From NCBI GenBank assembly GCA_031412945.1, contig JANODY010000006.1, forward strand, positions 35,224 through 99,223: a stretch of DNA of 64,000 nt, given 5' to 3'. The stretch comes from Cyanobacteria bacterium SOY_65_metabat_81 (GTDB taxonomy: Bacteria; Cyanobacteriota; Cyanobacteriia; Pseudanabaenales; Pseudanabaenaceae). The notes beneath the pieces are model-generated. The model worked only from the letters and a program-made list of their open reading frames with translations. It searched no databases and had not been told where the DNA came from. Positions 4,586 through 50,708 of the stretch are shown here, piece after piece (positions within the stretch are counted from its first letter, which is position 1; the number at the start of each line of letters is the position of its first letter). The position numbers were made by a program, and so were the translations under genes.

Positions 4586-4720
4586 TTGACACTCTCAACA
4601 CCGAAGTGACTGAGATTCCTGATTCAGCGAGACAACTTACCAACCTGACCTTAGATCTGGAAAGCAGAGGTCGAACTCTCCACAGGCGTAGAAATTTGGG
4701 TATGCCCTACCCTATTTAAA
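4586..4720 (-). ncRNA. Candidate omega-RNA (reRNA) scaffold overlapping the tnpB 3' end and right end
   Basis: In TnpB systems the guide RNA derives from the tnpB 3' end plus the right end. Here there is a conserved block with a UUCG-capped hairpin (CAC-TTCG-GTG) immediately 3' of the stop. The 5' boundary is a guess. Confidence 0.4.
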
Positions 4721-5859
4721 CCAATAGCCAAGATATTCAAAGCCGCATTATGGTCACGATCCAAAACAGTACCGCAATGACTGCATTGATGAGTGCGCTC
4801 ACTCAGCGATTTCTTGACTGTTGTTCCACAGGTTGAACAATTCTGGCTCGTATATTGTGGTGGCACGGCGATCGTCACCTTACCAAATACTTTGCCAAAA
4901 TACTCAACCCAATCTCGAAACATATACCAGCTAGCGTCAGATATTGACTTAGCTAATTTATGATTCTTGACCCTTACGGGTTTGCCAGTCGCTTCAAGTC
5001 GGTAAACCCGCCCAACGCGCTGGCTCACCATATTCCTCACCTGCAAATCTTCATAGGCAATCAGGTCGTTAGACCGAACTACGCACCTTGCTGTCTTTAC
5101 TGCAAAGTCTTTACGCTGCCTACTTACTTGCAAATGTTTTCTTGCTAACCGTTTTATTGCTTTTTTACGATTAGCTGATCCTCTCTTTCGCTTAGCAACT
5201 TTACGCTGCAACTTCTTGAGTTGACGCTCTGATTTTCTAAGAAATTTAGGGTTCTCAACAGTGTTGCCACTACTATCGGTATAGAAATGGTTTAATCCAA
5301 CATCTAAACCAGTTGTGGTTTGAGTTGGTGTCATTTCTTCCCTGCGATCAACATCAACACAGAATTGAGCGTAGTAACCATCAGCCCTTTTTACCAGCCT
5401 GACTCGTTTAATTTGCTCGATCGCGTAGAAGTTTAAATCGCGAGAGCCAACTAATTTGAGCCTGCCAATCTTGAAACCATCGGTCAAAGTTAGATATTTA
5501 CGATCTTCAGATAGTTTCCACCCAGTTTGTTTGTACTCAACTGAGTGACCTCGCTTCTTGAATTTTGGATATCCTTTCTTGCCTGATACTTTCTTTTTGC
5601 AGTTATCAAAGAATCGATTGATTGTGGCCCAGGCTCTCTCAGCGCTGGACTGTCTTGCCTGCGAGTTTAGCTTCTTAGCAAAATCAAACTCCTTGGCTAA
5701 TACAGCACACAGCGCAGATAGATCATATTTACTAGCACCTCGATTGTCCATCCAGTGCCTCAAAGCCTTATTACGCACGAACAGAGCCGTACGAATCGCC
5801 TCGTCAATGAGACCATACTGCCCTGTTTTGCCTTTTAGTTTTGCTTCGAGAACCAACAT
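4651..5859 (-). CDS. tnpB: RNA-guided endonuclease TnpB (IS605 OrfB family)
   Basis: 402 aa. RuvC triad candidates are D in TGLDVGLN, E in IAYEDLQV and D in LDRDHNAALN. Zinc ribbon CSTCG...CSHCG. Confidence 0.9.
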   Translation of the reverse strand: MLVLEAKLKGKTGQYGLIDEAIRTALFVRNKALRHWMDNRGASKYDLSALCAVLAKEFDFAKKLNSQARQSSAERAWATINRFFDNCKKKVSGKKGYPKFKKRGHSVEYKQTGWKLSEDRKYLTLTDGFKIGRLKLVGSRDLNFYAIEQIKRVRLVKRADGYYAQFCVDVDRREEMTPTQTTTGLDVGLNHFYTDSSGNTVENPKFLRKSERQLKKLQRKVAKRKRGSANRKKAIKRLARKHLQVSRQRKDFAVKTARCVVRSNDLIAYEDLQVRNMVSQRVGRVYRLEATGKPVRVKNHKLAKSISDASWYMFRDWVEYFGKVFGKVTIAVPPQYTSQNCSTCGTTVKKSLSERTHQCSHCGTVLDRDHNAALNILAIGLNRVGHTQISTPVESSTSAFQI

Positions 5860-19129: not shown

Positions 19130-19157
19130 TTTGGCTGGATCTATAAATTTGTCTATT

Positions 19158-19264
19158 AAGTAGCTAGGCGCAATTAAATATAAAACCAAAACCGAGACCT
19201 GTAGCACACGCGTAGCCTGCGCTACAGGTTTTAGAGTTTTATATTTAATTAAGCTCACTTACTT
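19158..19264. mobile_element. MITE-like element, family A, copy 1
   Basis: Terminal inverted repeats AAGTAGCTAGGCGCAATTAAATATAAAAC / GTTTTATATTTAATTAAGCTCACTTACTT around the hairpin CCTGTAGC...GCTACAGG. Related copies lie at 45399-45499 and 53703-53805. Confidence 0.75.
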
Positions 19265-19369
19265 ACAAAGCTTAACTTATTGAGTCAGAGACTAGGTTTT
19301 GTTATATATTTTGTTAAGTGGACTGGCTCAAATGCAGCAGATCTCGCTTCAATCTTACCAAAAAAAATT

Positions 19370-22300
19370 ATGAAAATCCTTCATGGTACTTGGATTCCTG
19401 ATCACAATGATGAGTTTATCCAAGGTGGTAATTTTTACATTTGGGTAGAGACAACTGAAACCAAGGCGATCGCCACCAAGCGCAAGTCACCTAAGCAGAA
19501 AACCGCCGATCTAGAGCGATCGGCGGAAAAGCATCCTGCGAGCATGGCTGAATCAGATTTAAAGGGCTTTCTTTGGAAGGATTTGGGGATTAAAGACGAG
19601 CTTTTGCAAGAACCAGATTATAGGTATGTCAGCAAAAGTTTTAAAAAAGATAAAATTATTTTTCCGAAATATTTTTTGCTGCCCACCAGTAACTTACAGC
19701 CGTTACCTTCTCTAGAGTCGGCGCGATATTTAGAAGTTGACATCCCCGAAAACTTTGAACTCCAGTACTGGCAAGTTGACTGCTATCAAGTTACGACTTC
19801 TGTTAAATTCAGTACCTACATATCTAAACGGGCAGTTAATGTTGTCAAATTGCTGAATGATTTACATTTCATCGCCATTAATAATCTTGCCGATGTGCAG
19901 CTAGGTGCGGATTTGCTTTTCTGGTATCACTACACCCAAGCCTTTAAGCAAATCATTCTCAAAGATCAATATATTCCCGCTTTTAAATATCGGGAACTTG
20001 CCGTTCAAGCCACAAAATCGACTAAAGCCGCGAAAACTTCAACAAAAACTTCGGCAAAAGCGAAAAAAGAAGCCCTGCAAACTCCCAAATTTGAAATTTA
20101 TCCTGCATGGGAAATTATTTCTGAGCAGTACGAAACAGAACTAGAGCAGTATGTGGAATATATGCCATTGGTTTGTGTTTCAGGCTTTAGCGAACTTGGG
20201 GATCAGCCGCAATTTTTCGATCGCCACAGCCTATTACAGCATTTCTCCGAATCGTTGCTACATAGCATTGTTACCCACACCCCATCGACTGCTCAATTTG
20301 ATAAGCAAGTAAGTGAGTCTCTATTACAAAAATGTCTGGATTTTTCTGATGATCATTTTGGCGATCCGATGATTGCTAATGATGCAGCTTTAGAAGAATA
20401 TCAACAGTGGCAAAGATGGCAACACAAAATCAATCGCACCCTGTCGGATTCACCATTTTATCTCTGCTTTCAACTCCAAACTCCGCTAAAGGAAGAAGAA
20501 CCTTGGCAACTACAATTTCTGATCTCGCCAAAACAAGACCCGTCATCAAAAATGTCTTTAGCCGATTATTGGGCAATGACTGCGGCAAAAAAGAAGGCTA
20601 CAGAAAAGCAGTTTGGCAAAGAGTTTGAGCAAAATCTCTTACTAAATCTAGGTTATGCGGCGCGAATTTATAATCAGATTTGGGAAGGATTGGAAACCGA
20701 TCGGCCGATTGGTTTAAGCCTCAATATCGATCAAGCCTTTGAGTTTCTGAAGGAATCAGCTTGGATTTTAGAAGATGCTGGTTATAAAGTGGTTGTGCCT
20801 GCTTGGTGGACACCTATAGGGCGACGACGCGCCAAAATGCGCCTGAAAGCATCGGGCAAAAGTAAAAGCAGCAGTAAAACTCAAGCCAAGAGCTACTTTG
20901 GGTTCGATCAGCTTGTGGAATATCAGTACGAATTGGCGATCGGCGATGAAACCATCTCAGTTCAGGAATGGGAGCAGTTGATCATCGCAAAAGCGCCATT
21001 GGTCAAGTTTCGCGGTGAGTGGATGGAACTCGATCGCGACAAAATGCAAGAGATGCTGACTTTTTGGCAACAACATGGTCAAGAGAAGCCAGAAATGAGT
21101 CTGATTGACTTTATGCAATTGACCGCAAGTGATCCTGATTTGGAGGTCGATCACGATAGTACCCTTGCCGAGATGATGGCAAAGTTGCAAGATAAGCAGC
21201 AATTTGAACCAATCGAAAATCCACCACAACTCAATGGCACTTTGCGAGAATATCAAAGACGCGGTGTGGCTTGGTTGCAATATTTAGAAAGCCTTGGCTT
21301 AAATGGTTGTCTTGCTGACGATATGGGCTTAGGTAAAACCGTGCAGATTATTGCCCGACTGGTCAATGAGAAAGCCGAAATTAATGCAGAAATTAGTGAG
21401 ATCCCAGAAAATCCTAAAGCCAAAAAATCCACAAAAACAACCAAAACCAAAAAAACTAGCGCTCCATTATCAAATTCTATTTTCAAGCCCACCTTGCTGA
21501 TTGCGCCGACATCGGTGGTCGGGAATTGGCAAAAGGAAATCGAAAAATTTGCGCCACATTTACGGGCGATCGTACATCATGGAGGCGATCGCCTCCATGA
21601 CGCAGCCGCCTTTGAAAAAATCTGTCAAACTCACGATCTGATCATTACTTCCTTCACTCTAATTCGCAAAGATGAAGCTCTGTTTGGTGGCGTAAACTGG
21701 CATCGCATTGTGCTTGATGAAGCTCAAAACATCAAAAATCCTAAAGCTGCCCAAACTAAGGCAATCCTTAAACTAGAATCCAAACATCGCCTTGCGCTCA
21801 CAGGTACACCTGTGGAAAATCGACTATTAGATCTATGGTCAATTTTTAACTTTCTCAATCCGGGATATTTAGGCAAAGAAGCACAGTTCAAGAAATCTTT
21901 TGAAACTCCAATTCAAAAAAATAACGATCAAATCCAAGCAGGTGTTCTCAAAAAATTAGTCGAGCCATTCATTTTGCGGCGTGTCAAAACCGATCAATCC
22001 ATCATCAAAGACCTGCCCGACAAAATCGAACAAAAACTCTACACTAACCTCACCAAGGAGCAAGCTTCGCTCTATGAAGCAGTGGTTAGGGATGTGGAGA
22101 ATCAACTCAATGAAGTAGAAGGTATTCAGCGAAAGGGTTTAATTCTATCCACATTGCTGAAGCTCAAACAGATTTGCAATCATCCCCGTCAGTTTTTGCA
22201 AGATGGTAGCGACTTCACAACCGAGCGATCGCATAAACTTAGTCGTCTATCCGAAATGGTCGAAGAAGCAATTTCGGAAGGAGAAAGCCTCTTAATCTTT

Positions 22301-22771
22301 ACTCAATTTACCGACATTGGCGATGCTCTAGAAAAACATCTGCGCCAAAAGCATCATTACAACACCTACTATATTCACGGCGGCACAAATCGCGATAAAC
22401 GCGAACGGATGATTACGGAGTTTCAAGATCCTGAAACTGAGCCTTCGGTGTTTATTCTCTCCCTCAAAGCGGGTGGTGTCGGCATTACGCTGACCAAGGC
22501 AAACCACGTCTTCCATTTCGATCGCTGGTGGAACCCAGCTGTTGAAGACCAAGCCACCGATCGCGCCTTTCGGATTGGTCAAAAGAAGAATGTGTTCGTG
22601 CATAAGTTTGTGACGATTGGCTCTCTAGAGGAGCGCATCGACCAAATGATTGAGGATAAAAAGAAACTCGCGGGTGCGATCGTGGGTGCTGATGAGTCTT
22701 GGCTCACGGAGCTAGACAACGACAAGTTTAAGCAGCTTATTGCTTTGAATAAGAGTTCAATTATGGATTAA
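19370..22771 (+). CDS. SNF2/RAD54-family helicase with a long N-terminal SNF2-associated region
   Basis: Motif I DDMGLGKT, motif II DEAQNIKN, LTGTPVENRL, C-terminal QATDRAFRIGQKK. Two Lys/Thr-rich low-complexity inserts. ATG at 19370 (MKILHGTWIPD) is preferred. Confidence 0.9.
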   Translation: MKILHGTWIPDHNDEFIQGGNFYIWVETTETKAIATKRKSPKQKTADLERSAEKHPASMAESDLKGFLWKDLGIKDELLQEPDYRYVSKSFKKDKIIFPKYFLLPTSNLQPLPSLESARYLEVDIPENFELQYWQVDCYQVTTSVKFSTYISKRAVNVVKLLNDLHFIAINNLADVQLGADLLFWYHYTQAFKQIILKDQYIPAFKYRELAVQATKSTKAAKTSTKTSAKAKKEALQTPKFEIYPAWEIISEQYETELEQYVEYMPLVCVSGFSELGDQPQFFDRHSLLQHFSESLLHSIVTHTPSTAQFDKQVSESLLQKCLDFSDDHFGDPMIANDAALEEYQQWQRWQHKINRTLSDSPFYLCFQLQTPLKEEEPWQLQFLISPKQDPSSKMSLADYWAMTAAKKKATEKQFGKEFEQNLLLNLGYAARIYNQIWEGLETDRPIGLSLNIDQAFEFLKESAWILEDAGYKVVVPAWWTPIGRRRAKMRLKASGKSKSSSKTQAKSYFGFDQLVEYQYELAIGDETISVQEWEQLIIAKAPLVKFRGEWMELDRDKMQEMLTFWQQHGQEKPEMSLIDFMQLTASDPDLEVDHDSTLAEMMAKLQDKQQFEPIENPPQLNGTLREYQRRGVAWLQYLESLGLNGCLADDMGLGKTVQIIARLVNEKAEINAEISEIPENPKAKKSTKTTKTKKTSAPLSNSIFKPTLLIAPTSVVGNWQKEIEKFAPHLRAIVHHGGDRLHDAAAFEKICQTHDLIITSFTLIRKDEALFGGVNWHRIVLDEAQNIKNPKAAQTKAILKLESKHRLALTGTPVENRLLDLWSIFNFLNPGYLGKEAQFKKSFETPIQKNNDQIQAGVLKKLVEPFILRRVKTDQSIIKDLPDKIEQKLYTNLTKEQASLYEAVVRDVENQLNEVEGIQRKGLILSTLLKLKQICNHPRQFLQDGSDFTTERSHKLSRLSEMVEEAISEGESLLIFTQFTDIGDALEKHLRQKHHYNTYYIHGGTNRDKRERMITEFQDPETEPSVFILSLKAGGVGITLTKANHVFHFDRWWNPAVEDQATDRAFRIGQKKNVFVHKFVTIGSLEERIDQMIEDKKKLAGAIVGADESWLTELDNDKFKQLIALNKSSIMD
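22558..22771 (+). repeat. Direct repeat copy 1 (functional 3' end of the SNF2 gene)
   Basis: Collinear with 25582-25795 at an offset of exactly 3,024 bp. The first 93 bp are identical and the remaining 121 bp have 13 substitutions. Confidence 0.95.
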
Positions 22772-22844
22772 GGAATTAAAAAGTTTGTATGCGAAAATAA
22801 ATCAGACTTACAGAACTAAACCAATAATTTACGAGATAGATCTG

Positions 22845-23162
22845 ATGATTGTCCAAATTCCTGAACCATTGAAAATCCTTGATTCTCTCTATTTAAAAGG
22901 CTATCGCAGTAGTTTAATTGATCGCTCCCTCACCAAAATTATTGAGCTAGAAAAAGCAAATACCATCAAACAAGCTTCTGAACTTCAATCAAAATTACAG
23001 GCTTATGAGCTTCAATATCAAATGCCTTCAGAGATTTTCTATCAAAGATTTAGCGCAGGTAGTTTAGGTGATGAGATGGATTATTTTGAATGGGATGTTA
23101 TTTATGAGCTTTGGCAATCTGTGCAAGAGCGTTTGCAGGTTTTGCAGCCAAACAGACAGTAA
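22845..23162 (+). CDS. Small coiled-coil protein, putative antitoxin partner of the downstream TumE-like gene
   Basis: 105 aa from the ATG at 22845. Its stop is 5 nt before the next ATG. Function is inferred from the pairing only. Confidence 0.6.
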   Translation: MIVQIPEPLKILDSLYLKGYRSSLIDRSLTKIIELEKANTIKQASELQSKLQAYELQYQMPSEIFYQRFSAGSLGDEMDYFEWDVIYELWQSVQERLQVLQPNRQ

Positions 23163-23167
23163 TCATT

Positions 23168-23554
23168 ATGGAATCTGGTCAATATCTTGAAAATATTAAG
23201 TCTAGACTGATTGCCAGCAATGCGATCGCTGCTTTTACAATTGTTGAAGAATTAGATCTTGGCGATCGCGGTTATTTTCGGGCAAGGGTGACGCTCAGTA
23301 ATGATGACTTTTTGGAAGTTGCTGAGTATTTTAAAATTACGGAGAATGTTGTGACAACAACGAGGTATCGCTATCAGTGGATGGACTGCGATCGCGCTAA
23401 TTTACGCAAACGTTGGGACAATGTGCCGCATTTTCCAAATCTGCCTAATTTTCCGCATCATATTCATGTTGAGTCAGAGGAAAATGTTATTTCAGGTAAT
23501 TCGTTAAGCATTCAGGATCTTTTAGATATTCTCGAACAAGAGATTGAGTTTTGA
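23168..23554 (+). CDS. DUF6516/TumE-family toxin-like protein
   Basis: Core RYRYQWMD...RWDNVPHFPNLPNFPHHIHV matches my recollection of the family signature (WDNAPHH...FPHHKH). Confidence 0.65.
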   Translation: MESGQYLENIKSRLIASNAIAAFTIVEELDLGDRGYFRARVTLSNDDFLEVAEYFKITENVVTTTRYRYQWMDCDRANLRKRWDNVPHFPNLPNFPHHIHVESEENVISGNSLSIQDLLDILEQEIEF

Positions 23555-23707
23555 TCGCCTGAATAAAACTGAAATTTAAAGCCATTAATGATCTTTGATG
23601 GCACGGCGATCGCTGCCTCAATTAGATTTTACCTTTGCTAATTTTATAAATACTTGTAATTTACTCGAAATCTAACGATAATGTGATGATTCGCGATTTG
23701 TAACATT

Positions 23708-25339
23708 ATGACCGATCCCTTAGCTGAAAAAATTGGTATTAACGTGCAGGGCGGTACTGTGAATGTACAGAACCTCAATATTGGGATTGCCGAAAGGCTT
23801 GCAGAGTCAGGCGATCGCGTCAGAATTTTGGTAGTAGCAGCTAACCCTTTGGGATCGTCTCCTTTGAAGCTGGATCATGAGGTGAAAACCATCCAAGAGG
23901 CGTTAAGGCGATCGCGCAAACGTGATAATTTTGTGGTGGAATATCGGCTGGCGGCTACTCCTTCAGAATTGCGGCGTGCTTTGTTGGATGTGGAACCCCA
24001 TGTTTTGCATTTTAGCGGTCACGGTTCGGGGGAGAAGGGGCTGTTATTTGTGAGTGATGAGTCGGCTGGGGCGATCTATCGTTCGGATAGTGGGGAGGTG
24101 CGATCGCGTTCGACTAGCAGCAACGAGATTAAATTTGTACCCGCGCAACCACTGGCGAATTTGTTGCAGCTTTGTGATGAGCATTTGGAATGTGTGGTTT
24201 TGAATGCTTGTTATTCGGATGTGCAGGGTGATGCGATATCGGTAAATATTCCCTTTACGATTGGGATGCGTGATGTGGTTGAGGATAATGTGGCGATTAA
24301 GTTTTCGCAGGGGTTTTATGATGCGATCGGTGCGGGTAAGGGTTATGAGAAGGCTTTTGAATGGGGGAAGGTGGCGATCTCGTTCGATCTGGCAAATGAG
24401 GAAGCTGCAAGGATTTTGGTGTTACGAAGAAAAGGAGAAACAACACAGATTATTGAAGAAACTACAACAAATGTAGATTCAAGCAGAACTATTAACCCTG
24501 AAATTTTGCCAGCCGATAATAACAATTTTTTCTCTGGACTTAAAAAGCTATTTACTCCTTCATTAAGTGCTAATGATTATTTTGATCGCGCTCACGAAAA
24601 ACAAAATAGAGGAGATAAACAAGGAGCGATTACCGACTACAGCGAAGCCATCCGCCTCAATCCCAATTATGCACAAGCTTACAACAATCGTGGGCTTGCA
24701 AAAAATAATATAGGAAATAGGCAAGGTGCAATACTTGATTATAACGAAGCCATACGCCTCAACCCGAAGTATTCACTCGCTTATTATAATCGTGGTCTTG
24801 TAAAGTATAAATTGGAAGATAAACACGGTTCTATTGCTGATTACAATAAATCGATTCGTCTTAATCCAGATTTTGCTGATGCTTATAACAGTCGTGGTAT
24901 TGCAAAAAGACATTTAAATGATATTCATGGATCAGTAATGGATTACAGTGAAGCAATTAGTCTTAGTCCAAACTTCGCTATTGCTTACCACAATCGCGGG
25001 TTAGCAAAGTCTGCATTAGGAGACAAAGAAGGAGCGATCGCCGACTACAAGGAAGCCATTCGCCTCAATCCTAATTATGCTGAAGCTTATTATAGTCGTG
25101 GGATAGTGAAGTCTGAGTTAGGAGACAAACAAGGAGCGATCGCCGACTACAACGAAGCCATCCGCCTCAATCCTAATTTTGCTGCTGCCTACTACAATCG
25201 CGGGTTAATCAAAAAAGAAAGAGGTGAAAAACAAGAAGCATTGGCAGATTTTCGGAAAGCATCGGAACTCTATCAACAGCAAGGGAATACAGAATGGTAT
25301 AACAACTCTCGCGATAGGATTAGAGAGCTAGGAGGCTAG
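23708..25339 (+). CDS. CHAT (caspase-like) domain protein fused to about 7 TPR repeats
   Basis: His/Cys dyad contexts VLHFSGHG and CVVLNACYS after ILVVAANP...LKLDHEVKTIQEAL. The C-terminal half has 34-aa repeats AIxDYxEAIRLNPNYAxAYxNRG. Confidence 0.85.
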   Translation: MTDPLAEKIGINVQGGTVNVQNLNIGIAERLAESGDRVRILVVAANPLGSSPLKLDHEVKTIQEALRRSRKRDNFVVEYRLAATPSELRRALLDVEPHVLHFSGHGSGEKGLLFVSDESAGAIYRSDSGEVRSRSTSSNEIKFVPAQPLANLLQLCDEHLECVVLNACYSDVQGDAISVNIPFTIGMRDVVEDNVAIKFSQGFYDAIGAGKGYEKAFEWGKVAISFDLANEEAARILVLRRKGETTQIIEETTTNVDSSRTINPEILPADNNNFFSGLKKLFTPSLSANDYFDRAHEKQNRGDKQGAITDYSEAIRLNPNYAQAYNNRGLAKNNIGNRQGAILDYNEAIRLNPKYSLAYYNRGLVKYKLEDKHGSIADYNKSIRLNPDFADAYNSRGIAKRHLNDIHGSVMDYSEAISLSPNFAIAYHNRGLAKSALGDKEGAIADYKEAIRLNPNYAEAYYSRGIVKSELGDKQGAIADYNEAIRLNPNFAAAYYNRGLIKKERGEKQEALADFRKASELYQQQGNTEWYNNSRDRIRELGG

Positions 25340-25581
25340 AGAAGGAAAAAGGGAAAAGGGAAAAGTTTAAAATAGCAGTCAAATTAGTGAATATTAGGAG
25401 TCTAAAGTGATGCGGAAACGGTAGAACGCACTGAAGATGCTGAGGTTGGGAGTAAAGGTGGTCTCGATAAACTGGTTGGAGCATTGACGGCTGAGATTAA
25501 GTTCGACAAAGTAATCGGCTTTTTTAGTTTTGTCGGTGAGAAATTTGAGGAAAAGCCGATCGAAGTCCATGTGAAGGTGGG

Positions 25582-25795
25582 CGATCGCGCCTTTCGGATT
25601 GGTCAAAAGAAGAATGTGTTCGTGCATAAGTTTGTGACGATTGGCTCTCTAGAGGAGCGCATCGACCAAATGATCGAAGACAAAAAGAAACTCGCGGGTG
25701 CGATCGTTGGTGCAGATGAGTCTTGGCTCACGGAGCTAGATAATGACAAGTTTAAGCAGCTTATTGCGCTGAACAAAAGTGCGATTATGGATTAA
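25582..25795 (+). pseudogene. Orphan 3' fragment of an SNF2 helicase gene (direct repeat copy 2)
   Basis: Encodes DRAFRIGQKKNVFVHKFVTIGSLEERIDQMIEDKKKLAGAIVGADESWLTELDNDKFKQLIALNKSAIMD*. It has no helicase sequence upstream. Confidence 0.9.
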
Positions 25796-25960: not shown

Positions 25961-27493
25961 GTGGCAAAGTTTACAGTCTTGCAAGACAGTCTTGCAAGTA
26001 TGGGTTATTTAACCTATTCACGACTCCTTATGCAAATGCGATCGCGATTTTCTCGGCTATTTTATTGGGTGCTATTTTGCGGGGCGATCGCCATTGCTAT
26101 CAGTGCCTGTCAAGCTAAAGCAGGGATAGTTTCTGTATTACCACAGCATCCCAATATTCAAGTATTTTTTAATCAAAATCAGGCGGCTCGATATACTGAC
26201 CCCTACCGCAACATTGAACGGCTTGGCGACAATCTGGAAAGGGTGCTGATCGATAATGTTAGTCAAGCCAAGATTAGTTTAGATATTGCTGTTCAAGAGT
26301 TGCGGTTACCAAATATTGCCAAGGCGATCGTTGATGCAAAATTACGCGGTGTCAATGTTCGGCTGATTCTCGAAAATAATTACAGTCGGGCTTGGAGTGA
26401 GTTTACCCCAGTCCAGATTGAGAAGATGAATGCACGCGATCGCGATCGCTACCAAGAATTTCAAAAATTTGCAGATATCAATAAAGATGGCAGCTTAAGT
26501 GAAAATGAACTTGATCGTCGTGACGGACTGCGATTAATCAAAGGAGCTAATATTGCTTGGCTTGACGATACTGCCGATGGCTCGAAAGGTAGTGGATTGA
26601 TGCATCATAAGTTTATGGTGATTGATGATCAGCTTGTTTTATTTGGTTCAGCCAATCTGACCATGAGCGACATTCATGGCGATTTTACCAAACCTGATAC
26701 TAGAGGAAATGCCAATAATCTGGTGCGGGTTGATAGCAAAGAATTGGCTAAGCATTTTAAAAAAGAATTTAATATCATGTGGGGCGATGGACCTAGTGGC
26801 AAACTTGATAGCTTATTCGGCTCTAAAAAACCATCTCGCAAAATCGATTATTTAGTAGTCGGAGGGGCGCAACTCCGTATCAAATTTTCTCCAGATCCTG
26901 AAAATACCGCTCGCGAGCAAACTAGTAATGGACTGATCGCCACGGCGATCGCAGGAACTAAAAAGACTGTTGATATGGCTTTATTTGTCTATTCCGAAGA
27001 GTTTATTTCCACAATTCTCGAAGAACGCCAACAAAATAATGTCCAGATTCGGGCGCTAATTGAACCTCAATTTGCCTATCGAGATTATGCGGCAACCCTT
27101 GATATGTGGGGATTACAATCTACACAAGATTGCAAAACAGGCAAAAGCAGTGCATGGCAACAACCACTTAAAACGGTCGGTATTCCTAACCTCATCGCTG
27201 GCGATACTCTGCATCACAAGTTCGCCATTCTCGATCGCAACTTAATTCTTACAGGTTCGCATAACTGGACTAATGCCGCTAACCATATCAATGATGAAGT
27301 TTTAGTGGCGATTCAAAATGAGACTGTGGCAAAGCATTACCAAAGGGAATACGATCGCCTGTATCAAGATGTCACCCTTGGTCCAACTGCAAAATTAGTG
27401 CAAGCTAGTTCGCAAAGCTGTACGGAAAGGGTTAAGGAAAAGTCCAAACCAAACTCTAGATCAAACGATATTGACGAGCCAAATTCTGATTGA
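25961..27493 (+). CDS. Phospholipase D-family (two HKD motifs) protein, probably a lipoprotein or membrane-anchored, with an EF-hand insert
   Basis: HKD motifs HHKFMVIDDQLVLFGSANLT and HHKFAILDRNLILTGSHNWT. Lipobox-like AIAISAC. EF-hand loop DINKDGSLSENE. The start is uncertain (GTG 25961 or ATG 26000/26030). Confidence 0.85.
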   Translation: MAKFTVLQDSLASMGYLTYSRLLMQMRSRFSRLFYWVLFCGAIAIAISACQAKAGIVSVLPQHPNIQVFFNQNQAARYTDPYRNIERLGDNLERVLIDNVSQAKISLDIAVQELRLPNIAKAIVDAKLRGVNVRLILENNYSRAWSEFTPVQIEKMNARDRDRYQEFQKFADINKDGSLSENELDRRDGLRLIKGANIAWLDDTADGSKGSGLMHHKFMVIDDQLVLFGSANLTMSDIHGDFTKPDTRGNANNLVRVDSKELAKHFKKEFNIMWGDGPSGKLDSLFGSKKPSRKIDYLVVGGAQLRIKFSPDPENTAREQTSNGLIATAIAGTKKTVDMALFVYSEEFISTILEERQQNNVQIRALIEPQFAYRDYAATLDMWGLQSTQDCKTGKSSAWQQPLKTVGIPNLIAGDTLHHKFAILDRNLILTGSHNWTNAANHINDEVLVAIQNETVAKHYQREYDRLYQDVTLGPTAKLVQASSQSCTERVKEKSKPNSRSNDIDEPNSD

Positions 27494-45258: not shown

Positions 45259-45398
45259 GAACTTACCGCGCACTCAAACTAAAAAGAAGAAAGGCTTGCG
45301 ATGCAAACCTTTCTTTTTTGTCTTGGTACGGAGAACGCGACAATATCAACAGCTTTGGTATAACTCTTGAGTCGGTATAATCAGATTTGATTAATGAT

Positions 45399-45499
45399 AA
45401 GTAAATAAGCGCAATTAAATATAAAACCAGAACCGAAACCTGTGGCGCAGCGTGCGCCACAGGTTTTAGGATTTTATATTTAATTAAGCCAACTTACTT
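45399..45499. mobile_element. MITE-like element, family A, copy 2
   Basis: AAGTAAATAAGCGCAATTAAATATAAAAC...core CCTGTGGCGCA-GCG-TGCGCCACAGG...GATTTTATATTTAATTAAGCCAACTTACTT. Confidence 0.75.
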
Positions 45500-45536
45500 A
45501 AGTAACATTTAGTAATAATCAGGAGCTTTGCGCGAT

Positions 45537-50627: not shown

Positions 50628-50708
50628 GTAAGCGGAGACGCAAGTTTCCGTTCACTCCTCACACCACATTCCGCCTGAGCTTATGAGCAGCAAAGGCGGT
50701 TTTTTCTT
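50628..50708 (+). ncRNA. yfr1: Cyanobacterial sRNA Yfr1
   Basis: Exact ACTCCTCACAC (50654-50664) lies unpaired between a 5' hairpin (CGGAGA-CGCAAG-TTTCCG) and a terminator (CCGCCT-17 nt-AGGCGG followed by TTTTTT). TACAAT -10 at 50616-50621. It lies about 200 nt upstream of trxA. Confidence 0.8.

Follow-up and report, generated by a model that had tools for sequence, protein, structure and literature searches.

The window, that is, the whole 64,000-nt stretch of DNA analysed here, is a housekeeping neighbourhood (mreBCD, gpsA, gltX, eno) and not a defence island, and its largest ORFs encode an SNF2 helicase (1163 aa) and a histidine kinase (942 aa). The CHAT-TPR gene occupies 23708..25339 of the forward strand and encodes 543 aa; it was delineated by its ORF, a Pfam CHAT match and seven TPRs. 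The ORF, present as an earlier note on this DNA had claimed, starts with ATG and is intact across 543 codons, and the motifs picked out in that note (RILVVAANP...LDHEVKTIQEAL, VLHFSGHG, and CVVLNACYS) were all found in the translation. The exact protein is recorded in NCBI and Logan and forms a singleton cluster at 90% identity, and close homologues in NCBI bear the name "CHAT domain-containing tetratricopeptide repeat protein". The protein is a member of a very large, previously annotated cyanobacterial family, and its architecture is already named in NCBI. A consensus scan, whose hits were overall not enriched compared with shuffles, placed a promoter-like element (TTGTAA-17 nt-GATAAT; 23654..23682, +) 26 nt 5' of the CHAT start codon. 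The -35/-10-like hexamers and their spacing are kept in six of seven loci of the Pseudanabaena clade despite differing upstream genes; the CHAT gene carries its own conserved promoter-like element, whatever gene stands upstream.

The gene is carried on an insert of 3,024 bp, which is flanked by a 214-nt direct repeat (copies 94% identical, 3,024 nt apart). The left copy (22558..22771, +) completes the SNF2/DUF3670 helicase gene (19280-22771) in frame at its 3' end, and the right copy (25582..25795, +), whose left edge lies at CGATCGCG, is a displaced remnant of the same SNF2 3' end. The first ~95 nt of the copies are identical and all 13 mismatches fall within the last ~120 nt. This duplication of the SNF2 3' end around 3,024 bp agrees with the 3-kb insert with a TumE-like pair that had been described in the earlier note. 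The stop codon of the CHAT-TPR gene and the right repeat are separated by a 242-nt spacer (25340..25581) containing an AAGGGAA microrepeat (x3.4); the first ~67 nt of the spacer match the clade locus L007, and the remainder is without homology to any fetched locus. In the search for an empty site, the exact 23-nt pattern of the downstream flank was unmatched in metagenomes, the 78 loci with relatives of the downstream PLD gene lost homology to the window upstream of ~25941, and SNF2 was within 9 kb in none of these 78 loci. Since no empty site was found, it is the 214-nt duplication alone from which the mobility of the insert is read. The base composition of the insert was not anomalous (GC 0.37-0.46, compared with 0.38-0.45 in the flanks), and no substrate candidate is encoded on it. 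The Logan contig L166 (2,991 bp, equivalent to 22621-25611 of the window) at first resembled a free circular insert. This was rejected, since the contig has no terminal overlap and stops at both ends within the stretch over which the repeat copies are exactly identical, where a k=31 unitig would be expected to stop. A phage origin was discarded after a comparison with 2.9 million viral contigs, which returned two distant matches (~30% identity).

Two genes precede the CHAT-TPR gene on the insert in the order antitoxin and then toxin, which is usual for TumE-TumA. The TumA-like antitoxin gene (22845..23162, +) encodes 105 aa when read from M21, the likely start of the listed ORF; a protein of these 105 aa has been recorded, and the gene is called in this form in the loci L003 and L164 and in L166. 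Its product matched the TumA model of NCBIfam with an E-value of 1.7e-8 (34.5 bits, below the equivalog cut-off of 100) and the PADLOC model PDC-M44A with 4e-9. The putative TumE toxin gene (23168..23554, +; 128 aa) ends 153 nt upstream of the CHAT-TPR gene, and its product matched Pfam TumE (PF20126, DUF6516) with 1e-21 (77 bits, above the cut-off of 23.4), NCBIfam TumE with 66.8 bits (below the equivalog cut-off of 90), and PADLOC PDC-M44B with 2e-19. One member of its cluster, from P. yagii, bears the name 'toxin-antitoxin system TumE family protein'.

The protease domain of the CHAT-TPR protein (residues 38-241; 23819..24430, +) was delimited by AlphaFold2 (AF2) modelling, Foldseek and HMM alignment. 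Pfam CHAT (PF12770) matched residues 56-216 (E=1.3e-9; 38.4 bits, with a curated gathering cut-off of 24), and the PADLOC 'chat' model matched the protein with 7.5e-15. The AF2 model of the N-terminal domain had a pLDDT of 82 and a pTM of 0.78, with residues 38-241 mostly at pLDDT 80-97. When this model was compared with solved structures by Foldseek, the top match was SAVED-CHAT (PDB 8tl0; E 5e-13, 25-28% identity, rmsd ~3 A over ~212 columns), and the next matches were MALT1, caspases 3 and 4, legumain, and separase. Such a comparison with CHAT and caspase folds was the check that had been suggested in the earlier note. The family profile also matched the SAVED-CHAT chain of 8tl0 with an E-value of 9e-27, and in the alignment HFSGHG was paired with HFIGHG and LNACYS with LNACCT. 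The predicted catalytic residues are thereby His105 (nt 24020-24022, +) and Cys168 (nt 24209-24211, +), since the histidine of GHG and the cysteine of NAC align to chain positions 355 and 402 of 8tl0, which are H375 and C422 in the numbering of the SAVED-CHAT paper (constant offset of 20). Alanine substitution of H375 and C422 abolished the activity of SAVED-CHAT (bioRxiv 10.1101/2023.06.23.546230). H101, H105, C162, and C168 are invariant across 82 genome-encoded relatives, and the dyad as well as every family-invariant residue is retained in the CHAT-TPR protein. Pfam, the structural model, the 8tl0 alignment and the 82 relatives agree that the N-terminal domain, as modelled, adopts the compact fold of caspases and CHAT proteases and has kept the His105/Cys168 dyad intact, and here the reading in the earlier note was confirmed. 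From the sequence we infer that the protein is proteolytically active.

The protease domain is preceded by an N-terminal tail of 36 aa (23708..23815, +; IGINVQGGTVNVQNLNIG) that is rich in G, N, Q, and V. The tail was predicted with a pLDDT of ~50-55, and it is 89-97% conserved, only among the loci of the Pseudanabaena clade; the majority of other family members begin 2-15 aa ahead of strand 1. Through the tail the protein could be connected to a partner whose gene lies elsewhere. A flexible linker of ~45 residues (242-287; 24431..24568, +) separates the two domains, as judged by its low pLDDT (37-44, with residues 245-287 all below 45 in the full-length AF2 model) and by the break of clade homology at this point. 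In the full-length model (pLDDT 83, pTM 0.55) both domains fold confidently, but the pTM and the disordered linker leave no usable interdomain arrangement. Interdomain docking or autoinhibition was therefore dropped as a reading of this model, which supports neither autoinhibition nor oligomerisation.

Seven 34-aa TPR units follow the linker (residues 288-525; 24569..25282, +). They were recognised by Pfam (seven stretches of TPR_1, E=2e-47), repeat finding and TRF, and correspond to paired helices spanning 288 to 525 in the full-length model. At the DNA level the repeat family D1 comprises six copies with a 102-nt period (24610-25240), and TRF reported arrays at 24598-24843 and 25018-25239. 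The earlier note had described a repetitive run of near-identical TPRs. The number of units (about seven), their length and the repetitive DNA agree with our results, but the units are consensus-like and not near-identical, with pairwise identities of 26-74% (aa) and 48-83% (nt). The sole close pair is formed by units 5 and 6 (74% aa, 83% nt). Some TPR units are recent duplicates, with a nucleotide identity of 83% in the CHAT-TPR gene and 94% in L001. Since the close homologues range from 326 to 543 aa in length, the size of the TPR array varies among them. The variability of the units, estimated as entropy over 52 distinct clade units, is highest at positions 2, 5, 9, 12, and 13. These are the concave helix-A positions by which TPRs contact ligands. 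High variability at these positions is general to TPR families and alone is no proof of diversifying selection. The protein ends with a conserved C-terminal capping helix (GNTEWYNNSRDRIRELGG; residues 526-543, including the stop codon 25283..25339, +; helix 528-542 in the model), and the same cap is present in P0001, P0002, P0007, and P0011 and in the separate TPR protein of L004.

The N-terminal domain defines an almost entirely cyanobacterial family of 8,834 clusters at 50% identity (E<=1e-30), and Pfam CHAT (PF12770) matched 81 of the 82 relatives. According to Pfam, an AAA_35 NTPase is fused in 38 of the 82 and is encoded by 24 of the 61 same-strand downstream genes; WD40 was also found downstream. 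These AAA_35 counts were taken from Pfam because a local AAA_35 HMM detected the fused NTPases and missed most of the downstream ones, so that its adjacent counts are underestimates. TIR fusions were found in 11 of the 82 relatives, and TPR, GUN4, cyclase, TRADD-N, and EAD10/11 were also fused. The AAA_35, TIR, EAD, and TRADD-N fusions support the view that relatives of the CHAT-TPR protein are embedded in NTPase-type conflict systems. The CHAT-TPR protein itself contains no AAA_35 (Pfam).

In every comparison between clade loci, nucleotide homology is lost where the CHAT domain ends; for the CHAT-TPR locus, homology to L001-L007 and L164 stops at 24390-24445. Different modules stand beyond this point. 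L004 is a split version in which CHAT-EAD9 is followed by an EAD9-like-TM-TPR protein, L008 encodes CHAT-FGE-sulfatase (an FGE-sulfatase/lectin-like domain), and P. yagii encodes CHAT-TM-helical domain. The CHAT head is a conserved portable module that has been recombined onto different C-terminal modules in close relatives. It occurs at four or more chromosomal sites in the clade, beside different toxin-antitoxin pairs. Truncated ORFs and decayed heads of the CHAT gene are frequent in the clade, and the copy of P. minima is interrupted by an IS66 element. No experimental test of any member of the minimal-CHAT family was found in the literature, and its protease activity and defence role are for this reason only inferred.

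The nearest solved relative of the protease domain is SAVED-CHAT, the Haliangium ochraceum protein associated with type III-B CRISPR/CBASS. Both proteins have a compact CHAT domain with the HFxGHG and VVLNAC dyad motifs, and in both a sensor is tied to CHAT through a flexible hinge. The sensor side differs, being a C-terminal TPR array in the CHAT-TPR protein and an N-terminal SAVED domain in SAVED-CHAT; Pfam detected no SAVED domain in the CHAT-TPR protein, and the PADLOC SAVED_CHAT model matched the CHAT part only (profile 286-451, E 1.5e-5). None of the partners of SAVED-CHAT (the cyclic-oligonucleotide synthase, the Cmr complex, and the PCaspase substrate) was found near the CHAT-TPR gene. 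Csx29 of the type III-E CRISPR Craspase likewise combines TPRs and a CHAT protease in one polypeptide and acts in a defence context, but its order is TPR-CHAT, the reverse of that in the window protein. Csx29 was absent from the top 50 structural matches of Foldseek, and the window contains no ORF of Cas7-11/gRAMP size and no Csx30/31. Thus, of the proposal that CHAT-TPR proteins are known conflict effectors, the part that refers to NTPase-type systems agrees with the fusions in the family, whereas the likeness to type III-E is loose. The absence of an NTPase or Cas partner, also proposed, was corroborated: in the window neither a Cas gene nor an NTPase of the type expected was found, and its large ORFs are housekeeping genes. 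Neither a CRISPR repeat family (Rfam) nor an array (TRF) was detected in it.

[quoted passage not shown] 2020, 2021; PMC7159879, PMC8195603). The CHAT-TPR family follows the same logic. Since homologues are named in NCBI and the design has been described by Kaur et al., the word "undescribed" in the earlier note was too strong for the protein. The EACC systems come mostly from actinobacteria or proteobacteria, and their defining feature is an EACC1 gene (single-TM domain) upstream or a fused EACC2, whereas the genes upstream of the CHAT-TPR gene are TumA and TumE; EACC1 was not among the top 25 of the 92 Pfam families found in 31 upstream neighbours of relatives. Within cyanobacteria, the CHAT-AAA_35 (STAND-like)/WD40 proteins share the N-terminal CHAT module with 40-50% identity and represent the majority architecture of the family. 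In contrast to them, the window protein and the whole Pseudanabaena clade lack the NTPase, and TPRs or another module are placed directly on the protease.

On balance, we lean somewhat towards the CHAT-TPR protein being a cytoplasmic, single-chain, stand-alone conflict or cell-death protease, which would be free of an NTPase, would bind its trigger or substrate by the variable TPRs, and would be independent of TumAE. The TPR array would be the ligand-binding part, serving as a trigger sensor, a substrate recruiter or both. Binding of the ligand would gather the CHAT domains and switch on proteolysis; clustering is proposed by analogy with caspases and with SAVED-CHAT, in which the sensor activates CHAT by oligomerisation. 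Activation by filament formation, as in SAVED-CHAT, is an analogy only for the CHAT-TPR protein. As a result, the cell may stop growing or die, in a conflict setting such as phage, foreign DNA or kin discrimination.

One competing explanation is a three-gene TumA-TumE-CHAT-TPR system, as the earlier note had raised, in which the protease would sense a trigger via its TPRs and cleave TumA or activate TumE. In its favour, the 3,024-bp insert carries the three genes side by side in one orientation, and the TumAE pair fits PDC-M44, a candidate defence system of PADLOC. In addition, the block from TumA to the CHAT head (22845-24443) shares ~83.6% identity with blocks of two other genomes (L003 and P. 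yagii L164); there it follows HcyBio, elsewhere on the chromosome, and it has therefore moved as a unit at least once. However, L003 and L164 share this locus and probably represent one event. When the gene neighbourhoods of homologues were compared, no conserved co-occurrence of the three genes emerged: of the 9 loci of the Pseudanabaena clade only 3 have TumAE beside the CHAT gene, it was absent there from all 75 loci of the rest of the family, and the six TumAE-free clade loci have PIN-Phd, DUF2281-PIN, DUF2442, or nothing instead. Moreover, the promoter-like element of the CHAT gene is conserved in TumAE-free loci, and the gap after tumE speaks further against a single unit. The TumE-TumA superfamily to which the neighbours correspond was described without a protease component (Durairaj et al. 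2023), and the validated toxin-antitoxin system TumE-TumA works in E. coli with its two genes and no need of a third component (PMC10584680). We therefore regard the three-gene system as quite unlikely and reject it as an obligate system. From its distribution and sequence, TumAE looks like an independent toxin-antitoxin passenger on the same 3-kb segment, sharing transport with the CHAT-TPR gene and forming no three-gene machine with it.

It is also possible, though unlikely, that the protein is an effector acting in trans, whose N-terminal tail or TPRs would dock on a distal STAND/AAA_35 or EAD protein in the manner of the EAD, Death-like or amyloid (BASS) motifs of multicellular bacteria. 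Its attraction is that an AAA_35 NTPase is fused to or encoded behind about half of the family, and that sister genes in the clade carry a terminal EAD9, with a separate EAD9-like protein as its partner. The tail, predicted at low confidence as if disordered, resembles BASS motifs in length and composition; some of these motifs are linked to CHAT, and Pseudanabaena is among the bacteria that have them (bioRxiv 10.1101/2020.01.06.895854). The BASS motifs described are, however, C-terminal on effectors and not N-terminal. A search with a 40-aa query containing the tail, low in sensitivity, returned eight short ORFs and no NTPase, and a local HMM of limited sensitivity found no AAA_35 at 13-36 kb of the window or in seven clade loci. 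A housekeeping or developmental regulatory protease, whose TPRs would recruit a specific cellular substrate, has a precedent in HetF, the Anabaena CHAT cysteine protease with demonstrated activity (PMC9457339) that degrades PatU3 and thereby coordinates division and differentiation (PMC9457339, PMC8406250); HetF shows that specific cellular substrates are possible for cyanobacterial CHAT proteases, and the CHAT-TPR gene is placed among housekeeping genes. HetF is, however, a large, conserved protein of development and the divisome, whereas the gene in the window is a small accessory gene and mobile. Close relatives have the gene at several chromosomal sites, the insert is flanked by a duplication, and the swapping of the C-terminus between strains together with the common truncated heads is the behaviour of an accessory conflict gene, so that a regulatory protease is improbable. 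Finally, the decayed heads and truncated ORFs of the clade and the IS66-interrupted P. minima copy could suggest non-functional cargo, that is, a recently transferred or decaying copy. This is highly improbable for the window gene, since its 543-codon ORF is intact, the dyad and the family-invariant residues are kept, the promoter-like element is conserved, and both domains are confident in the model.

The stand-alone protease that we favour can be extended to a bolder and, in our judgement, doubtful proposal. The Pseudanabaena CHAT-TPR protein would then be a distinct one-protein, NTPase-free immune sensor-effector, in which fast-reshuffled TPRs recognise a phage or foreign protein and clustering activates the caspase-like domain. 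It would spread on integrase-free cassettes together with a TumAE addiction module, inserting by recombination at the 3' ends of chromosomal genes and duplicating the 3' end of the target.

Caspase-like proteases increasingly turn out to be the executioners in bacterial immunity, as exemplified by Craspase, SAVED-CHAT/PCaspase, type IV Thoeris, and gasdermin-activating proteases. The present finding overturns nothing, since the architecture is already annotated and the three-gene proposal is unsupported. The minimal-CHAT family comprises thousands of cyanobacterial clusters at 50% identity, and the CHAT-TPR copy is a simple representative of it. As one NTPase-free polypeptide with a plain TPR array, it could ease the study of activators and cleavage targets.

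The CHAT-TPR gene (23708-25339, + strand) is an intact ORF of 543 codons, and the motifs quoted in an earlier note, made from the sequence alone, were found in its translation. In Pfam, residues 56-216 matched the CHAT domain (E 1.3e-9, 38.4 bits vs a cut-off of 24) and seven TPR_1 stretches were recognised (E 2e-47); the PADLOC 'chat' model matched at 7.5e-15. Our placement gave seven 34-aa TPR units at residues 288-525, directly followed by a capping helix of 18 residues, and the DNA that encodes them repeats every 102 nt, in agreement with the run of about seven TPRs with repetitive DNA described from the sequence. Their description as near-identical was overstated, since pairwise identities range over 26-74% (amino acid) and 48-83% (nucleotide) and a recent duplication is suggested for units 5 and 6 alone. 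The protein begins with a clade-specific, G/N/Q/V-rich tail of 36 aa (IGINVQGGTVNVQNLNIG; 23708-23815), which was predicted with low confidence in the structure model. The tail is similar in composition to bacterial amyloid signalling (BASS) motifs. No partner protein was found with the tail sequence, in a search of low sensitivity whose only matches were eight short ORFs.

The AF2 model of residues 1-275, made from 85 homologues (pLDDT 82, pTM 0.78), contains the entry strand (38-45) and helix (55-67) that had been proposed for the N-domain. The first Foldseek match in the PDB was the activated SAVED-CHAT filament 8tl0 (E 5e-13, 25-28% identity, rmsd about 3 Å over about 212 columns), followed by MALT1, caspases 3, 4, 6 and 7, legumain and separase, which confirms the proposed CHAT-caspase fold; Csx29 was not among the best 50 matches. 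The family profile matched the 8tl0 sequence at E 9e-27, with HFSGHG opposite HFIGHG and VVLNACYS opposite VVLNACCT. The GHG histidine and NAC cysteine of 8tl0, chain positions 355 and 402 counted along this alignment, are H375 and C422 of the publication by a single constant offset of 20, and SAVED-CHAT activity is lost when both are changed to alanine (bioRxiv 10.1101/2023.06.23.546230). H101, H105, C162 and C168 are invariant across 82 genome-encoded relatives. The fold is that of a compact CHAT domain, and the dyad is intact and of a validated type; taken together, these data indicate a compact, roughly 200-residue CHAT protease, predicted to be very probably active. In the full-length model (mean pLDDT 83), the domains were well folded, with low confidence for TPR unit 4, and the linker at 245-287 scored below 45; at a pTM of only 0.55, no arrangement of CHAT against TPR can be claimed. 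The modelled picture is of two modules joined by a flexible tether, like the tether described between the modules of SAVED-CHAT.

With the N-domain as query, 1,802 proteins were found, of which those most similar (85-91% identity) are from Pseudanabaena, and several close relatives are already named 'CHAT domain-containing tetratricopeptide repeat protein'. The CHAT-TPR protein is a member of a known, already annotated family, which to our knowledge is experimentally untouched so far. A profile search of 1.84 billion representatives gave 8,834 cluster representatives at E<=1e-30, and at least 594 matches, nearly all cyanobacterial, came from a scan in which each species was represented by one genome. 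Viral contigs contain essentially none of the family (2 distant matches of about 30% identity in 2.9 million contigs). An AAA_35 NTPase is fused to CHAT in 38 of the 82 genome-encoded members; C-terminal partners include TIR (11), TPRs (7) and GUN4 (5), and fusions to cyclase, TRADD-N and EAD10/11 also occur. AAA_35 was further encoded by 24 of 61 same-strand downstream genes, often with WD40 propellers, consistent with the earlier mention of CHAT-TPR architectures as effectors in NTPase-based conflict systems. The family belongs to the NTPase-centred conflict systems that Kaur et al. described in multicellular bacteria, in which the N-terminal caspase is constant and the C-terminal domains are many and alternative (PMC7159879, PMC8195603). 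The same design is seen in the EACC1/EACC2 systems, but their defining components were not found at family loci; EACC1 was absent from the best 25 of 92 Pfam families for 31 upstream neighbours of relatives.

Within the Pseudanabaena clade (nine loci, those from other genomes or contigs numbered L), the CHAT-coding head of the gene occupies four or more chromosomal sites: after the SNF2/DUF3670 helicase gene (window and P. minima L002), after HcyBio (L001, L003 and P. yagii L164), beside putA (L006, L007) and after a GFO/IDH oxidoreductase gene (L004). The CHAT domain is 84-89% identical in nucleotides between loci, and this homology ends at window 24390-24445, the CHAT domain boundary. The modules beyond it differ, being TPR arrays of differing lengths, EAD9 (L004), FGE-sulfatase (L008) or, at P. 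yagii L164/L165 6519-8165, a TM segment and a helical domain (about 250 aa) that Pfam does not recognise, which replace the TPRs behind a TumA-TumE-CHAT head block like that of the window. The gene is modular, mobile and strain-variable. In L004 (OY969811.1, 6001-8311), a CHAT-EAD9 gene is followed by an overlapping second gene, whose product combines an EAD9-like helix (49% identical at E 7e-8) with a hydrophobic segment that may span the membrane, then a linker rich in P/S/T, TPRs and the same cap as in the window protein. This suggests that an EAD9-EAD9 interaction may stand in for the covalent link, and the EAD9 and EAD9-like parts and the shared cap argue that CHAT and TPR array would act as a unit, linked covalently or via an adaptor.

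Positions 2, 5, 9, 12 and 13 of a TPR are the concave, ligand-contacting positions. Variability among 52 distinct clade units peaks at exactly these positions (2.7-3.2 bits of entropy vs 0-1 at scaffold positions), so that the array has a variable concave face beside its conserved cap. The pattern fits a binding role, as a general TPR property rather than proof of positive selection. Decayed or truncated heads are common in the clade, such as a 74-nt remnant downstream of the intact gene and 72% identical to it (L001 10413-10486) and eight ORFs of 32-70 aa consisting of the N-terminal tail only (P0121-P0128), which points to frequent recombination or erosion at the cassettes.

The window's CHAT-TPR gene lies in a 3,024-bp segment between two copies of a 214-nt direct repeat, the left at the 3' end of the SNF2/DUF3670 gene (22558-22771) and the right a duplicate of that end (25582-25795). 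The repeat covers 71 codons at the end of the SNF2 gene; its copies start 3,024 nt apart, and a HIP1-like CGATCGCG marks its left edge. Over their first ~95 nt the copies do not differ, all 13 mismatches being confined to the final ~120 nt. Exactly such a structure would arise if a 3-kb circle with the SNF2 3' end on it had recombined into the chromosome by one crossover, which is a possible route of insertion. Of the mobile insert claimed previously, the segment was borne out and is flanked by this duplication; no recombinase gene was present within it, and no empty site was found with the downstream-flank pattern or at loci with relatives of the downstream PLD gene. The GC content is unremarkable. 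A 2,991-bp Logan contig matching the insert is not a free form, being explained by assembly breaks within the exact repeat. The downstream neighbour (25961-27493, +) encodes a 510-aa protein with two PLD-like domains, whose weak PADLOC DrmC-type matches are due to the PLD fold; in related metagenomic contigs with this gene, synteny with the SNF2 side breaks off upstream of ~25941.

The remaining window is housekeeping (mreBCD, gpsA, ilvA, gltX, speA, htpG, eno), with a sole TnpB-type gene (4651-5859, - strand; 402 aa, OrfB_IS605 and Cas12f1-like TNB domain) and an Rfam match to the cyanobacterial sRNA Yfr1 (50632-50701, +; 44.6 bits vs a gathering score of 38). A palindromic repeat of ~105 nt, matching in both orientations, sits shortly before the SNF2 start codon (19156-19265), with copies 26 kb off (45398-45500, 82% identical) and in another Pseudanabaena genome (L003 2925-3029, 79%), and looks like a small MITE-like element.

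The earlier note raised the possibility that the protease and the TumE-like pair upstream act together as one three-gene system. The TumE-like gene (best start 23168, +; 128 aa) matched TumE well and the TumA-like gene (best start 22845, +; 105 aa) matched TumA weakly; TumE and TumA form a validated toxin-antitoxin system of two genes that targets translation (PMC10584680). The TumA-TumE-CHAT head block shares about 83.6% identity with its counterparts in L003 and P. yagii, which occupy a different locus, so that it has moved as a unit at least once. Against a functional three-gene system, the other six of the nine clade loci carry PIN-Phd, DUF2281-PIN, DUF2442 or no toxin-antitoxin pair, and TumAE was found at 0 of 75 other family loci. 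Moreover, the CHAT gene has its own promoter-like element, TTGTAA-17 nt-GATAAT, 26 nt upstream of its ATG, which is kept in 6 of 7 clade loci whatever gene is upstream. TumAE is thus read as a co-travelling addiction module outside the protease mechanism; a real functional link to the protease is rather unlikely, and so, to the same degree, is the three-gene model.

As noted earlier for NTPase and Cas genes, the 64-kb window holds no NTPase of the expected kind, Cas gene or CRISPR array. It is unlikely, if a little less so, that the protein is a trans-acting effector of a distal NTPase or adaptor, docking via its N-terminal tail. A HetF-like cellular regulator seems quite improbable; inert cargo is the least credible, very improbable reading. 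The family is embedded in conflict systems, and we lean slightly towards a mechanism, by analogy with caspases and SAVED-CHAT, in which the TPR array would bind a trigger and/or substrate and thereby cluster CHAT domains, switching on proteolysis, which in a conflict setting may stop growth or kill the cell. The reading as a protease-TPR sensor-effector holds in its fold, dyad and TPR array, with sensing and activity as its predicted parts. An NTPase-less variant with TPRs attached directly to CHAT is a modest twist on a known family.
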